A stretch of DNA of 58,599 bases from SRR2962707_945; one strand, 5' to 3'; positions 50,130-58,599 are shown, counted from the first letter of the stretch. Notes: generated from the sequence alone by a model not told the origin. Made by a program: numbers and translations.

Positions 50130-51041
50130 TTATTCGCCAGGCCCATCTTGATCGGATCGCGCGTCTTTCTTGAGCGCTTCAAAACCGATTATCACATCCA
50201 AAAGTTCTGTCGTAATCTCGCTTTGACGCAGGGCGCGCGTGTCGGATTTCAAGGCATCCAACCTATCGTCAACCGATTGCTCGGCTTGCTGCATGAGTGC
50301 AAGGCGCGCCGCGTTCTCTGTGACCAAGGCCTCTGCCGCGGCTCGGAAGAGGGACGCGAAAAGATGCCCGCGGATAAGGGATATGAACAGATCCTCGGGC
50401 GGCATCGAAAAGTGGGGTAAACTGCGCGAGACCCATCGCTTAGACTGCAGATCGCGCACCAAATCGGGATCAAGCGGCAGCAAGGCATCAATCCTGAGGG
50501 CCTGCATCCCTTGTTCGGACCGCGCGAAATAGGCAAGGGTTACAGATATATCGTGCGGACGACGGGCGCGGCGAATATCATCCAGCTTTTGCGTTAAAAG
50601 ATTGGCAAGCCGCCCAATACCGTCAACCGAGGCCGGTGGGAAAAACGTTTCCTCCACCGCAAGGTCAAGGTCACAAAGCGCCCCTTCCATCTGCGCCCCG
50701 ATGCACAACACCGTGGTTTCTGCGTCTGTGTCAGACTTAATATGGGTTCCAACATGTTCGGCCAGCGCCTCGTTATAGTTGCCACACAGCCCGTGATCAG
50801 ACCCGAAAACCACGATAACGCGGGCCGCAGCCCCCACCCCTGCGCCCTTAATCGGGCCCGATTGCGATAGCAAAGCATGCAACCCCGTCAGGACCGTTTC
50901 ATGATAGGCCTCGATCGCGCGGGCGGCCTGTTCATAAGGGGCCGAGTTGATCACCGATAGGGATTTCATCGTATGCACGACACCGCGAATGCCTTGCATG
51001 CTGGTGATCCGGCGTGACAGGCTTTCAAGCGATTGTGCCAT
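50130..51041 (-). CDS. atpG: N-ATPase gamma subunit
   Basis: 'VVHTMK', '[11 protein letters not shown]', 'ENAARL..M', 'RQSEITTEL'. Confidence 0.93.
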
Positions 51042-52563
51042 CGGCGTCTTTCAAAGTAGCGCGCGCTTGATGTCCAAGCGTAATCATGCGGGCCCGGGCA
51101 GCGTCCTCAAAGGGTTCGTTTTGTGCAATCTGATCGGCAATATCGCCCAGATCACGAGCGGCCGCGATTCTTATGGCCCCCATAACGGCAAAGATATCCG
51201 CCTCGTTCAGGCCATCAAACTGACCATCCATCGCGGCGACCAAAACCGCCAGTTGTTCAACCGCCGGGATGGGGTCGCGTTCCGCTTGACGCAGCGATGC
51301 GCGCACCGCCGCACCACGGGTCAGTCGCGCACGGGTCGCGTCATCCAGCCTTGTGCCAAAGCGGGCAAAATCCTCAAGCTCTTCGAACTGCGACAAGGTC
51401 ACGCGCAGGTTGCCCGCAACAGAACGAAACGCACGGCTTTGCGCTTTGCCCCCTACCCGGCTTACCGACACCCCAAGGTCTACGGCGGGGAACTGGTTCT
51501 TGCGCACAAGGCGTGGCGACAGATAAATCTGCCCGTCTGTAATCGAAATCAGGTTGGTCGGGATATAGGCAGATAGGTTTTCGGCCTGCGTTTCGACCAC
51601 GGGCAAAACCGTAATGGAGCCACCGCCAATGGCATCGGTGAACTGCCCTGCACGTTCCAACAACCGGGCGTGAATATAGAAAATGTCGCCCGGAAATGCC
51701 TCGCGCCCCGGTGGGCGGCGCAGCAACAACGACAGTTCGCGATAGGACCGCGCGTGATGCGTTAAGTCATCCAAAACCACCAAAACATCATGGCCCTGCC
51801 CTGCAAAAAACTCTGCCATCGTCAGCGCCGCATAAGGGGCGATATAGGCCAAACCTGCTGCATCAGCGTCACCAGCGGCAAGGATGATCGTACGGTCCAT
51901 CATTTCACCATCGGTGATGGCACCAATCACCTTGGCCACCGCATCGCCGCGCTGGCCAATCGCGCAATAGATACAAATCACGTCGGTGCTTTTTTGGTTC
52001 AGGATCGCATCAACCGCCAATGACGTCTTGCCGGTTTGCCGGTCTCCGATCACCAATTGGCGCTGCCCAAGCCCGATCGGCACCGCCGCATCCACCGCTT
52101 TGATCCCTGTCGCCAGCGGTCGTGTGATCGCCTTTCGACTAAGGATCTCCGGCGCTTCGGCCTCTACCGGGCGGGAGGTTTCAGTTTTGATCACCCCCTT
52201 TGCGTCAGCGGGATTTCCGAGTGCGTCGACAACCCGACCCAGCAGCGCGTTGCCTACTTTCGTGCTGACAACGGTGTGGGTTCTGAAAACATTTTGCCCG
52301 ACGCCGACATTCTCGGAAGACCCCAAAAGCACGACACCCAACCGCCCGGGTTCCAGATCCAGCACGATGCCCTGCACGCCGCTTTCAAACTGCAGTAGTT
52401 CGTCGGACAACGCCCGCTCTAATCCGGTTACAATGGCGATACCGTCGGTAATTTCGGCAACCTGCCCGATCTCGCTCAGTCGGGGGCGGGGTGCCGGACA
52501 CTCCAACAGGGATTGCACCAACGCATCGGGGTTCGTGTCGATTTTATGGGCATCAAGACGCAT
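51025..52563 (-). CDS. atpA: N-ATPase alpha subunit
   Basis: 'GDRQTGKT', '[15 protein letters not shown]', '[13 protein letters not shown]', 'SVSRVGG'. Confidence 0.95.
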
Positions 52564-53323
52564 CAGTTGCCACCTTCGGCCCGGCGCTCGTGCTCAAGCG
52601 ATCCTCCATCAGGCTTTCAAGCCCCTCGATGTAGGAATCAAGTGTCCAAGCGATCTGTGCCCCACCCAAGCGGAACATAAGACCCGGCGCTTGGGCGCTG
52701 TCCGTTTTGAATGTGACGGTGGCATTGTGGAATAGCGCCAATATTTCAGCTTTCAGGATTTTCTGAACAGGTACTGGCAAGGCATCATGGCTTACCACGG
52801 TTGCTACGGTGGCGTCACCTGCGGCCTTTTTCAAATCCTCCACCATCGGTTTGATCTGCTGGACAAGATGCCGCGCCATGCGTTCCTCAAGGGTTTCGTC
52901 GGCCAGATCGGTCAACGCCTTGCGCGTCAAAGACAGCAGCGTTTCTGCCCCCACACGGTGCAGATGCGTGGTGAATTTGTGCGCCTCGTCACCCAAATGC
53001 GCCTGCCAGTTTTCGCGCTCGGCCTTCATCTGCTGGGCGGCCTCGGCCAGCAATGCGTCACGTTGATCTTCTGCCGATTTGCGGATCGTTTCGGATATTT
53101 CGGATTGTGAAAGGTTCAATGCGCGCAGTTTATCGTGATAGTCGGCCTCGACGGCTGCGGCCTTGTCCTTGGCCTCGACCGCTTCGTTCATCCGGTTCGA
53201 AATCTCGGCCTCGCGCGCGTCAATGCCGTCTAGGATAGGATGATACAAAAACCGTTTCAAAAGCCATACGAGCACCAGAAAATTGGCGATTTGCGCCAAG
53301 ACAGTGATCCAATCGATGGACAT
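52553..53323 (-). CDS. atpF: N-ATPase long b subunit (b/delta-like fusion)
   Basis: '[25 protein letters not shown]'; 256 aa with extended C-terminus; no separate atpH in the operon. Confidence 0.9.
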
Positions 53324-53326
53324 GCC

Positions 53327-56678: not shown

Positions 56679-57598
56679 TATTTCGCCTCGGCTTTTGGGG
56701 TGACAAGGGTGCCAGCCGTGCGGTTAAGGATCGACAATGCATCCGCCAACCGACCGATACCCGCGATCCCGCCCCGATCCGCGAAATCGCAAGCTGCGTC
56801 CAATTTCGGCCCCATCGACCCCTTTGGCATATCAAGCGCGCGGCCCTGATCTGGCGTCAAAGACCCGATGCGGCTGGCAGTATCAGTGCCAAAACCCTCG
56901 TAAACCGCATCGACATCTGTCAGCAGCAACAACGCATCTGCACCAATATCCCCGGCCAAAAGCGCACTGGCCGCGTCTTTATCTATCACTGCCTCGACAC
57001 CGATCAGACTGTCGTCGCGACGGCGCAGAACGGGGATGCCGCCACCGCCCGCGCAAATGACGATCACCCCTTGATCCAGCAGCATCCGCACCACGCGCAA
57101 ATCCGGAATTTCGATGGGTTTAGGCGACGGAACAACCCGGCGCCAATATTGCCCGTCTTGCGCAATGGTCCAGCCTGTAACCTTGGCCCGTGCCTCGGCT
57201 TCTTGCTGGGAATATGTCGGGCCGACAAATTTGGTTGGCTTGCGGAAGGCGGGGTCAGTGCCATCAACAATCACTTGGGTCAGCAGGGTTGCTACCGCGT
57301 GATCATGGCCAAGCGCGTTCTCAAGCTCTTGTTCGATCAGATACCCGATCATGCCCTCGGTTTCGGCACCCAACACATCCAGCGGATAGGCTTCGTCAGG
57401 TTTATAAGCCGCTGCTTGAAGGGCCAGCAGACCCACCTGCGGCCCATTTCCATGGGTCACGATCAGCTGGTGACCCGCCCGCACGATCTCGGCCAAGGCT
57501 TTGGCCGCGATTGTAACATTGGCGCGCTGTGCGGTGGCCGTTAATGGCTGGCCCCGTTGCAACAGGGCATTACCGCCAATGGCTGCGACAACCAGCAT
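56678..57598 (-). CDS. arcC: Carbamate kinase
   Basis: 'AIGGNAL', 'THGNGPQVG', 'PTKFVGP', 'RRVVPSP', 'GGGGIP', 'EAVIDKD', 'GSMGPK'. ATG 57598. Confidence 0.95.
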
Positions 57599-57599
57599 T

Positions 57600-58599
57600 T
57601 CAGGCCCCCAATGTGGCGACAAGAACCGCCTTGATCGTGTGCATCCGGTTTTCCGCTTGATCAAAAACGATGGAGGCTGCGCTTTCAAAAACCTCTTCGG
57701 TCACTTCCATGCAGTCCAACCCGAACTCGGCCTTGATCTCAGCACCAACGGTGGTTTCCGTGTTATGAAACGCAGGCAGGCAATGCATGAAACGGGCGCG
57801 CGGATTGCCGGTTTTGGCCATCACCTCAGCGGTCACCTGATAGGGCGATAGCAGCTTGATGCGTTCGGCCCATTTTTCCTTGGGCTCGCCCATGGACACC
57901 CAAACGTCAGTATAAACGAAATCAACGTCTTTGACGGCGGTATCCACATCTTCGGTGATCATCACGCGCGCGCCGGTTTCCTTGGCAATCGCCTCGGCTT
58001 CCTTGATGATTTCAGCGTCGGGCCAGCATGCTTTGGGCGCACACAGCCGGACATCCATGCCCATCTTGGCCCCGCCAATCAGCAGGCTGTCGCCCATATT
58101 ATTGCCCGCATCGCCCAAAAAGGCATAGGCCACGCGGTGCAGGGGTTTCTCCACATGTTCTTGCATGGTCAGAAAGTCAGCAAGGATTTGCGTCGGGTGA
58201 AATTCGGTGGTCAGCCCGTTATAGACAGGCACGCCCGAATACTGCGCCAACTGCTCAACAACGGTTTGGCCAAAGCCGCGATATTCGATCGCATCGTAGA
58301 TCCGGCCCAGAACCCGCGCGGTATCTTTGACAGATTCCTTGTGGCCGATATGCGAACCCGTGGGCCCAAGATACGTCACCCGCGCGCCCTGATCATAGGC
58401 CGCGACCTCAAAGCCGACGCGGGTCCGCGTGCTGTCTTTTTCAAAGATCAGCGCGATGTCCTTGCCTTGCAGCTTTGGTACTTCGGTGCCCGTGTATTTT
58501 GCCACCTTCAGATCGGCGGCAAGCTTTAGCAGGAACGCAATCTCGCGCGGGGAATAATCGCGAAGTGTCAGGAAATGCCGGTTCTTCAGATTGTAAGCC
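57600..58599 (-). CDS. arcB: Ornithine carbamoyltransferase, probably catabolic; start codon cut by the window edge
   Basis: Frame open to the edge ('[14 protein letters not shown]...'); 'FEKDSTRTR', 'HPTQ', 'HCLP', 'QAENRMH'; 1 bp from the arcC start. Confidence 0.93.

Follow-up and report, generated by a model that had tools for sequence, protein, structure and literature searches.

Results

Arginine deiminase and N-ATPase genes in one chain

The stretch of DNA analysed in this work, SRR2962707_945 (58,599 nucleotides, referred to here as the window), ends in a run of 11 consecutive minus-strand genes (50130-58599) in which two genes of the arginine deiminase (ADI) pathway, arcB and arcC, pass directly into the nine genes of an N-ATPase, atpDCQRBEFAG. 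Open reading frames (ORFs) and Pfam and NCBIfam matches place all of them with gaps of at most 3 nucleotides (nt), and an earlier sequence-only reading of the same DNA, which had described this chain, is borne out by profile matches and coordinates in every detail. A single nt separates the arcB stop codon TGA from the arcC ATG at 57598. Direct reading of the next junction confirms the TAATG previously noted at 56676-56680, in which the arcC TAA (56680-56678) and the atpD ATG (56678-56676) have one base in common; a GAGG located 7 nt upstream is likely to be the ribosome-binding site. We consider it reasonably probable that the arrangement constitutes a low-oxygen module in which ATP formed by carbamate kinase drives the export of Na+ by the N-ATPase.

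The arcB gene (57600-58598) encodes an ornithine carbamoyltransferase containing PF02729 and PF00185, with scores of 537-543 bits on models of this enzyme, among them NF003286 (537.6 bits, cut-off 515). Its 5' end is cut by the window edge, with about one codon missing, and its product is 99% identical to the 333-residue ArcB of L001 (L001, L002 and so on are our labels for the loci of relatives); the catabolic role is assigned by gene context. The product of arcC (56678-57598) is carbamate kinase, which carries out the ATP-forming step (NF009008, 435.8 bits, cut-off 361; TIGR00746, 363.3 bits, cut-off 358.25).

Nine consecutive ORFs with the corresponding family matches then follow in the order atpD-C-Q-R-B-E-F-A-G. 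The beta subunit encoded by atpD (55284-56678) obtains 745.2 bits on the alternate F1F0 model TIGR03305, just below its cut-off of 752, versus 608.8 bits on the ordinary atpD model. Next come the epsilon subunit, atpC (54877-55287; TIGR03166, 106.6 bits, cut-off 100.1; PF02823), the small membrane protein of N-ATPase operons, atpQ (54593-54880; PF09527, 40.8 bits, cut-off 26.6; TIGR02230, 75.1 bits, cut-off 46.7), and the signature subunit, atpR (54297-54596; PF12966, 31.8 bits, cut-off 26), so that both small proteins exceed their Pfam cut-offs, with AtpR reaching only 32.6 bits on the NCBIfam model TIGR03165 against a cut-off of 55.5. The a subunit, atpB (53611-54300; TIGR03306, 302.6 bits, cut-off 302.1), has its likely start at the ATG at 54300; the longest ORF begins at 54420 and the family models match from about residue 41-43. 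The c subunit, atpE (53327-53614; TIGR03322, 143.6 bits, cut-off 130.85), precedes a long b subunit of 256 residues, atpF (52553-53323; PF00430; best match TIGR03321, 177.1 bits, under the cut-off of 224.7), which substitutes for the absent delta subunit, no atpH being found in the chain. The alpha subunit, atpA (51025-52563; best match TIGR03324, 632.6 bits, under the cut-off of 750.5; NF009884, 625.6 bits, cut-off 554), and the gamma subunit, atpG (50130-51041; PF00231; best match TIGR03323, 219.2 bits, under the cut-off of 282.35), complete the set. Overlaps of 4 nt (ATGA) join atpD/C, C/Q, Q/R and B/E, as well as R/B if atpB starts at 54300; E/F has a 3-nt gap, and F/A and A/G overlap by 11 and 17 nt. 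Ranked by E-value, every modelled subunit has the alternate F1F0 model as its first or second match, and three of the seven such models (epsilon, a and c) score above their curated cut-offs, with beta, alpha, b and gamma below.

An N-ATPase with a predicted Na+-type c subunit

The atp genes agree with the N-ATPase operon of Dibrova, Galperin and Mulkidjanian (2010; PMC2881411) in their order, in the presence of AtpR and AtpQ, in a long b subunit without delta, in a c subunit of predicted Na+ type and in encoding a second ATPase beside the ordinary F-type enzyme in the window's relatives. An ordinary F-type atpD (825-843 bits) lies elsewhere in all five genomes of tandem-bearing relatives that were checked. 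Unlike the operons of that study, the one in the window does not begin at atpD, but continues an ADI operon unbroken. The 2010 text does not contain 'arginine', 'carbamate' or 'anaerob', and neither 'arginine', 'carbamate', 'arcC' nor 'acetate kinase' occurs in the text of its supplement, figure S7 aside (PMC2881411). In a tree of beta and alpha subunits, whose groups were compared over the labelled rows only, the window belongs to a 33-row clade (SH-aLRT 100) together with N-ATPase operons of identical gene order, and loci with the arc-atp tandem are spread over all three of its subclades.

The window c subunit carries Glu30 in helix 1 (ALGEG) and ESTAIY in helix 2 (IESTAIY). A helix-1 glutamate combined with E-S-T-x-x-Y represents the full set of Na+ ligands (PMC2881411, PMC9927469). 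Among the 39 close or arc-linked loci the glutamate is found in all and ESTxxY in 38, L024 having ESSGIY. The motif points to a c subunit of the Na+ type, and the window enzyme would then be specific for Na+, in keeping with the arginine-fuelled ion-gradient module that the sequence-only reading had proposed.

The ADI pathway and the F-ATPase are both involved in the acid tolerance of oral streptococci and lactic acid bacteria, and this precedent favours an alternative in which the locus is an acid-stress module, the ADI pathway providing ammonia and ATP and the ATPase expelling protons. The N-type c-ring of Burkholderia pseudomallei, which is H+-specific and belongs to an enzyme proposed as a proton pump against acid stress (PMC5376962), speaks in the same direction. 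Nonetheless, the Na+ motif seen here and in the close or arc-linked loci is missing from the B. pseudomallei protein (PMC9927469), the hosts live in seawater, FNR-type boxes are the control elements that were found, and the neighbouring genes are those of hypoxia and fermentation, not of acid resistance. Given its conflict with the Na+ motif, the FNR-type boxes and the seawater hosts, we rejected the acid-stress reading as highly improbable.

The upstream end in a sister strain

The locus that matches the window best is L001, from Sulfitobacter sp. CW3: an ungapped alignment of 8436 nt (window 50164-58599) shows 97.5% nucleotide identity. Two more genes stand at the head of the chain in L001. 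The first, arcD, encodes an antiporter of the APC type for arginine and ornithine (TIGR03810, 599.3 bits, cut-off 591), and the second, arcA, encodes arginine deiminase (NF002381, 544.5 bits, cut-off 414); the successive gaps from arcD to arcC are 24, 16 and 1 nt. Hence, the full unit appears to comprise 13 genes, arcD-arcA-arcB-arcC-atpDCQRBEFAG, and the best explanation of the window is that it holds the distal 11 genes of such an operon of a Sulfitobacter. Of the genes for the four ADI functions, arcB and arcC are seen in the window, and arcD and arcA at the matching place in L001, directly upstream, as anticipated by the sequence-only reading, which had put arcA and arcD beyond the window. 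A phasin-like gene and a universal stress protein gene lie upstream of L001 arcD in divergent orientation.

Recurrence and evolution of the arc-atp link

A scan of species genomes with the window beta subunit yielded 80 N-ATPase loci, some of them with short flanks. In eight (L001, L003, L008, L011, L012, L015, L018 and L022) arcB and arcC stand directly before atpD; in L010 only arcC is visible there, at a contig edge; and in L013 arcABC lies 5 kb upstream of the ATPase operon, behind an insertion. The other 70 loci show no arcB or arcC in the available flank, which in some is short. The nine loci with arcC directly before atpD have their stop and start codons overlapping by 1 or 4 nt (three loci), 9-12 nt apart (five) or 27 nt apart (one), and arcA precedes arcB in all nine loci with enough flank. 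The carrier ahead of arcA is of the APC type in L001 and L008, and belongs to the DcuC family (PF03606) in five others. All ten arc-linked loci fall among the 32 with 74% or more beta-subunit identity to the window, and they reside in Roseobacteraceae, a Kiloniellaceae metagenome-assembled genome (MAG), three Marinobacter and a Pseudomonas MAG. The junction is thus shared by independently assembled genomes of two proteobacterial classes and is not peculiar to this assembly. An assembly artefact was rejected on these grounds, and chance adjacency of the arc and atp genes was rejected too. Each of five whole genomes bearing the tandem contains exactly one arcC and one arcA, both of them at the tandem. 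At megablast sensitivity no plasmid with the tandem was found, only pieces of arcB/arcC (72-77% identity) and one piece of atpD.

Two further configurations were noted among these loci. In L002, a Hoeflea MAG, an 83-residue carbamate-kinase fragment (3985-4236) with an FNR-type box inside it (4147) sits just before atpD and is probably a decayed tandem. In L013 (4992-9845), a Pseudomonas MAG, and L020 (1740-5820), a Thiopseudomonas MAG, genes for an NhaC-type Na+/H+ antiporter, an AAA_15/DUF3696 ATPase and an RNA-ligase-domain protein directly precede atpD, and in L013 they stand between arcABC and the ATPase operon.

The association was also analysed in 401 genomes drawn evenly from one family, the Rhodobacteraceae, with a TIGR03305 score of at least 650 bits required for an N-type beta (the hits that follow, none above 641 bits, resemble ordinary betas). 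Carbamate kinase was found in 61 of them, an N-type beta in 34 and both in 10, a mild enrichment (Fisher one-sided P = 0.02). In nine of the 10 genomes with both systems, which measure about 4 Mb, no more than 25 kb separates the two on a single contig: five are adjacent on the same strand (three tightly, two with about 300 and 770 nt between them) and four lie at 4, 5, 15 and 24 kb, the tenth having them on different contigs. Linkage of the two systems in Rhodobacteraceae that hold both is thus strongly supported. In a gammaproteobacterial order (301 genomes), 18 genomes encode an N-type beta and nine of these also arcC, with the two within 13 kb in four.

Three layouts can be distinguished. 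The tandem, with arc leading into atp, characterizes the N-ATPase clade of the window; divergent operons about 330 nt apart occur in L093 and L094, whose atpD is 68-69% identical; and in a third lineage (63% identity) atp is followed by dcuC-arcABC on one strand, with a 470-nt gap in L109 and a Crp/Fnr gene in between in L110. L111 is a decayed copy. The rhodobacteraceal locus L089 (5032-7656) offers a further variant, with arcC alone before atpD, no arcA, arcB or carrier in the locus, and an acetate kinase gene divergent from arcC-atpD with an FNR-type box between them. In a tree of arcA, arcB and arcC from 28 operons, all 11 tandem operons and four of the five nearby ones group in a single 20-row clade (support 100) together with five unlinked operons; Marinobacter and Pseudomonas operons are nested among alphaproteobacterial ones, and the starred branches require at least four changes of tandem state. 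Together, the tree patterns and the layouts indicate that the link has been inherited, has moved between classes together with the ATPase, has been lost and has formed more than once.

A proposed common transcript and possible oxygen control

Scans for sigma-70 promoters and terminators returned no terminator match and no usable promoter match at the arcC-atpD junction. The single sigma-70-like match near it (56706-56677) has its -10 hexamer over the atpD ATG and could not, therefore, give a complete atpD message. In the region as a whole, neither promoter-like matches (6 versus 4.4±2.1) nor terminator-like matches (12 versus 10.5±2.8) rise above those of shuffled sequences. Together with the overlaps and gaps of at most 3 nt throughout, this upholds the earlier view that the chain has no intergenic room for a separate atp promoter, and a single transcript would be expected to cross from arcC into atpD.

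The P. aeruginosa arcDABC operon is Anr-dependent, with a box ahead of arcD, supplies ATP in the absence of respiration and ends after arcC. L001 resembles it in the order arcD-arcA-arcB-arcC and in a candidate FNR/Anr-type box before arcD, but its operon continues into nine ATPase genes, and many of the relatives analysed here differ from P. aeruginosa as well in using the DcuC-family carrier instead of an APC-type ArcD. The L001 arcD ATG is preceded by two candidate boxes, TTGATTCAGGTCAA and TTGACGAAGATCAA, at distances of about 280 and 195 nt, in the upstream region to which the sequence-only reading had pointed for an FNR site, and they are the only two TTGA-N6-TCAA matches in its 21.4 kb. 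An E. coli-type FNR consensus (at most one mismatch) occurs ahead of the first arc gene in L001 only, and by eye in L003; the pattern was relaxed to the core TTGA-N6-TCAA, which fits the FnrL/Dnr sites given for Dinoroseobacter shibae in the consulted parts of PMC5398030.

Across the 614,601 nt of the 31 close loci, this core has 30 sites. The 350 nt ahead of the first operon gene, 1.8% of the sequence in all, contain nine of them against an expectation of 0.53 (binomial P = 1.7e-9, a statistic that makes no correction for intergenic base composition). The tandem loci L001 (two sites), L003 and L008 have a box ahead of the first arc gene and none ahead of atpD, while in the arc-less loci L002, L004, L006, L007 and L027 the box is ahead of atpD; L089 and L090 each add one more ahead of the first gene. 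These boxes suggest that the arc-atp operon of this Sulfitobacter may be regulated by oxygen.

The placement of the boxes bears on a second alternative, according to which the arc and atp genes share a low-oxygen island, with separate or internal promoters, no energetic hand-off and no obligatory common transcript. Tandem loci without an FNR-type box before atpD, set beside arc-less relatives that have one there, are difficult to accommodate in it, and so are arcC stop and atpD start codons that overlap or stand no more than 27 nt apart in the window and the tight related loci. A promoter inside arcC would be compatible with the sequence, however, divergent and spaced layouts do occur, and the neighbours of related loci (see below) repeat the gene set of a known low-oxygen island. 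On balance, we regard this alternative as quite improbable.

Other ATP-forming genes at the same position

Carbamate kinase is not the only ATP-forming enzyme encoded next to N-type atpD. In L029, from Phaeovulum (4629-11371), genes for polyhydroxyalkanoate (PHA) synthase, a short-chain reductase, a MaoC-phosphotransacetylase fusion and acetate kinase lead into N-type atpD through ATGA overlaps, a chain that would represent a route from polyhydroxybutyrate through acetyl phosphate to ATP fused to an N-ATPase. L079 has phosphoglucomutase and acetate kinase before atpD, with a 21-nt gap, and L110 has phosphoketolase there. Acetate kinase, located by tblastn and ORF lists, is present in the flanks of nine of the 80 loci. 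In 48 more distant loci, the products encoded just upstream of atpD comprise phosphoglucose isomerase, a glycogen-phosphorylase-like protein, transaldolase, class I aldolase and three Na+/H+ exchangers, with others that are varied or unassigned. Within the close clade, PHA synthase, universal stress proteins, phosphotransacetylase (pta) and pairs of Crp/Fnr and CBS proteins recur as neighbours. Genes for baeRF (bacterial eRF1-like) proteins were seen near or just before N-type atpD in three loci, and for DUF2254 membrane proteins in two (L031 7059-8177; L056 8728-9885; L072 5360-6511; L073, L080).

Several of these neighbours recur in the lxa locus of Burkholderia cenocepacia, an island that low oxygen induces and that serves persistence in anoxia (PMC3721108). 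According to the Table 4 text of that paper, the common families are universal stress proteins, acetate kinase, phosphotransacetylase, PHA synthase, acetoacetyl-CoA reductase, Anr-like regulators and ABC transporters; the list in that text is without rotary ATPase or ADI genes, whereas the marine loci add an N-ATPase and often arcABC.

The genes preceding atpD also help to weigh a third alternative, a standby ATP synthase, in which the N-ATPase makes ATP from the inward Na+ gradient of seawater at low membrane potential by virtue of a large c-ring and a high ion-to-ATP ratio, and the ADI pathway and the N-ATPase are parallel low-oxygen sources of ATP that share only a regulator. Co-regulation accounts for the adjacency as well as an ATP hand-off does, the only measured N-type ring has 17 subunits (PMC5376962), and a 2026 preprint, in the portion consulted, holds that predicted c-ring sizes suit about 50 mV and speaks of 'standby ATP synthases' (10.64898/2026.10.01.756066). 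Without respiration, on the other hand, entering Na+ would not be exported again, and such a synthase could work only briefly. The genes right before atpD, moreover, form ATP or feed that step (carbamate kinase, acetate kinase, phosphoketolase); anoxic D. shibae cells combine a drop in ATP with a rise in potential (PMC5397407, consulted in part), the sign of a pump and not of a synthase; the authors of the B. pseudomallei study propose a pump (PMC5376962); and the same preprint cites evidence for a cyanobacterial N-ATPase raising salt tolerance. A standby synthase, although the foremost of the three alternatives, seems unlikely to us.

Flanking region

Homology between the window and L001 stops 34 nt past the atpG stop codon, and the arc-atp module is located at a rearrangement point. 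In L001 the break is followed by a fragment of an insertion sequence integrase core (rve; 16515-17081) and by haem-uptake genes. In the window, the next gene past atpG is convergent (49425-50087, plus strand), a 220-residue ORF that encodes the C-terminal portion of a cysteine protease domain of the YopT type (PF03543, 54.5 bits) and is missing at the matching place in L001. It separates the ATPase operon from a set of genes (44145-49043, plus strand) for an HlyD-type adaptor, a fused RbbA-like ABC ATPase/permease and an ABC-2 permease, and from a run of type VI secretion genes (36501-43819, plus strand; FHA, TssJ, TssK/VasE, DotU, IcmF/TssM) with a G+C content of 0.50-0.54, as opposed to 0.57-0.60 in the arc-atp region. 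The HlyD/RbbA-like/ABC-2 set is found beside the N-ATPase operon in L004 (5790-8522) and L032 (6028-9795) too, and ABC transporter genes are likewise listed for the lxa locus in the text consulted.

Discussion

On every refuting condition named in the sequence-only reading that sequence alone can address, the outcome favoured that reading. The comparative analysis points to a module in which falling oxygen would lead an FNR/Dnr-type regulator to turn on a promoter ahead of arcD. The antiporter ArcD would then exchange external arginine for ornithine, and arginine deiminase, ornithine carbamoyltransferase and carbamate kinase would convert arginine to ornithine, two NH3 and CO2, substrate-level phosphorylation yielding one ATP in the process. 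Translated from the same message, the N-ATPase would hydrolyse this ATP and expel Na+, and a non-respiring cell in seawater could in this manner hold its internal Na+ low and maintain both a membrane potential and a sodium-motive force. We infer the hydrolytic, pumping direction of the enzyme. Fermenting cells are known to run rotary ATPases backwards to energise the membrane; what is new here is a dedicated second rotary enzyme tied to a source of ATP.

Published data on D. shibae, consulted in part, provide a first comparison. Its N-ATPase corresponds to Dshi_0435 to Dshi_0443 (supplement of PMC2881411), and Dshi_0432, 0433 and 0434 are arcA, arcB and arcC, headed 'Arginine fermentation' in Table S3 of Ebert et al. 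(2017; PMC5398030). Dshi_0432-0443 is thus alike in running from arcA, arcB and arcC into nine N-ATPase genes, a likeness of tag order only. In array data for the wild type, the log2 changes without versus with O2 are +1.76, +2.24 and +1.25 for arcA, arcB and arcC, and +0.35, +0.42, +0.88, +0.96, +0.46, +0.55, +0.69, +0.18 and +0.49 for the nine N-ATPase genes, with -1.90 and -2.13, a drop of about 4-fold, for the ordinary atpD2 and atpE2 (PMC5398030). The two gene sets stand under separate headings in that work, and its main text, so far as consulted, is without the word 'arginine' and covers only the repression of the F0F1 clusters. Kirchhoff and Cypionka (2017; PMC5397407) report that in anoxic D. 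shibae ATP falls and membrane potential rises, through an electrogenic process that is independent of electron donors and whose mechanism they call unclear in the parts consulted.

Several observations weigh against the proposed module. In D. shibae, the increase of the N-ATPase genes is much smaller than that of arcABC (+0.2 to +1.0 versus +1.3 to +2.2 log2; PMC5398030, consulted in part), and read-through is hence partial at best there, or message stability differs; moreover, the experiment concerned nitrate respiration and not arginine fermentation (PMC5398030). The ion specificity and direction of the pump follow from a sequence motif and from reasoning about fermenting cells, and are put forward here as likely properties of the enzyme. 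The link with the arc genes is not obligatory, since most sampled genomes with one system do not have the other: in the Rhodobacteraceae, 24 of the 34 genomes with an N-ATPase are without arcC and 51 of the 61 with arcC are without an N-ATPase, and in the gammaproteobacterial order five of the nine genomes with both have them unlinked, one at 198 kb and four on different contigs. In L091 and L092, 300-770 nt separate arcC and atpD, and this spacing, like the divergent layout, leaves room for separate promoters. For the window, the arcD and arcA genes and the FNR-type boxes are seen in the sister strain L001 only, the compositional caveat on the box statistic applies, and in none of the five tandem loci of Lentibacter, Kiloniellaceae and Marinobacter (three) does the strict core occur ahead of the operon. 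The much weaker response of the N-ATPase genes than of arcABC in D. shibae, taken together with the spaced and divergent layouts, keeps alive the notion of a shared low-oxygen island in which both sets belong to one regulon but are transcribed separately.

The proposed module can be set beside other second rotary ATPases. The N-type ATPase of B. pseudomallei, with its c17 ring, has likewise been proposed as an ATP-driven ion pump for survival under stress, but it is coupled to H+ and related to acid stress in phagosomes (PMC5376962), whereas gene context here indicates lack of oxygen and a named source of ATP. Another second ATPase and proposed pump is the N-ATPase that Takabe and colleagues studied in cyanobacteria (cited in PMC9927469 and in the consulted portion of the 2026 preprint); it is tied to salt stress, unlike the one described here. 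The sequence-only reading had added that this coupling was not known to have been described; accordingly, none of the papers seen among the full-text matches describes the coupling, in a collection that covers few subscription journals.

Since their definition in 2010, N-ATPases have been recognized in many marine, soil and pathogenic bacteria and have been proposed to act as salt pumps, acid pumps or standby synthases, and their cellular role has been called largely unexplored (PMC5376962). We tentatively suggest, as a possibility for the whole class, that N-ATPases are primarily neither salt nor acid pumps, but 'anoxia pumps' of respiring bacteria that spend ATP from substrate-level phosphorylation on the export of Na+ (or H+) when the respiratory chain stops, and that evolution has repeatedly wired them to an ATP-forming step or its supply, be it carbamate kinase, acetate kinase, phosphoketolase or glycolytic genes. 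If true, this would explain the rise in membrane potential with loss of ATP in D. shibae. A conserved and repeatedly re-invented link to the ATP-forming steps of fermentation, behind FNR-type boxes, would constitute the first context-based answer to the question of what N-ATPases do, for it specifies the fuel (arginine or acetyl phosphate), the condition (lack of oxygen) and the direction (from ATP to ion gradient). It is testable in tractable roseobacters, including D. shibae, which combines the same tag order with a transposon library and an anoxic boost in potential, and it bears on how 'aerobic' marine bacteria may survive the daily anoxia of algal surfaces and particles.

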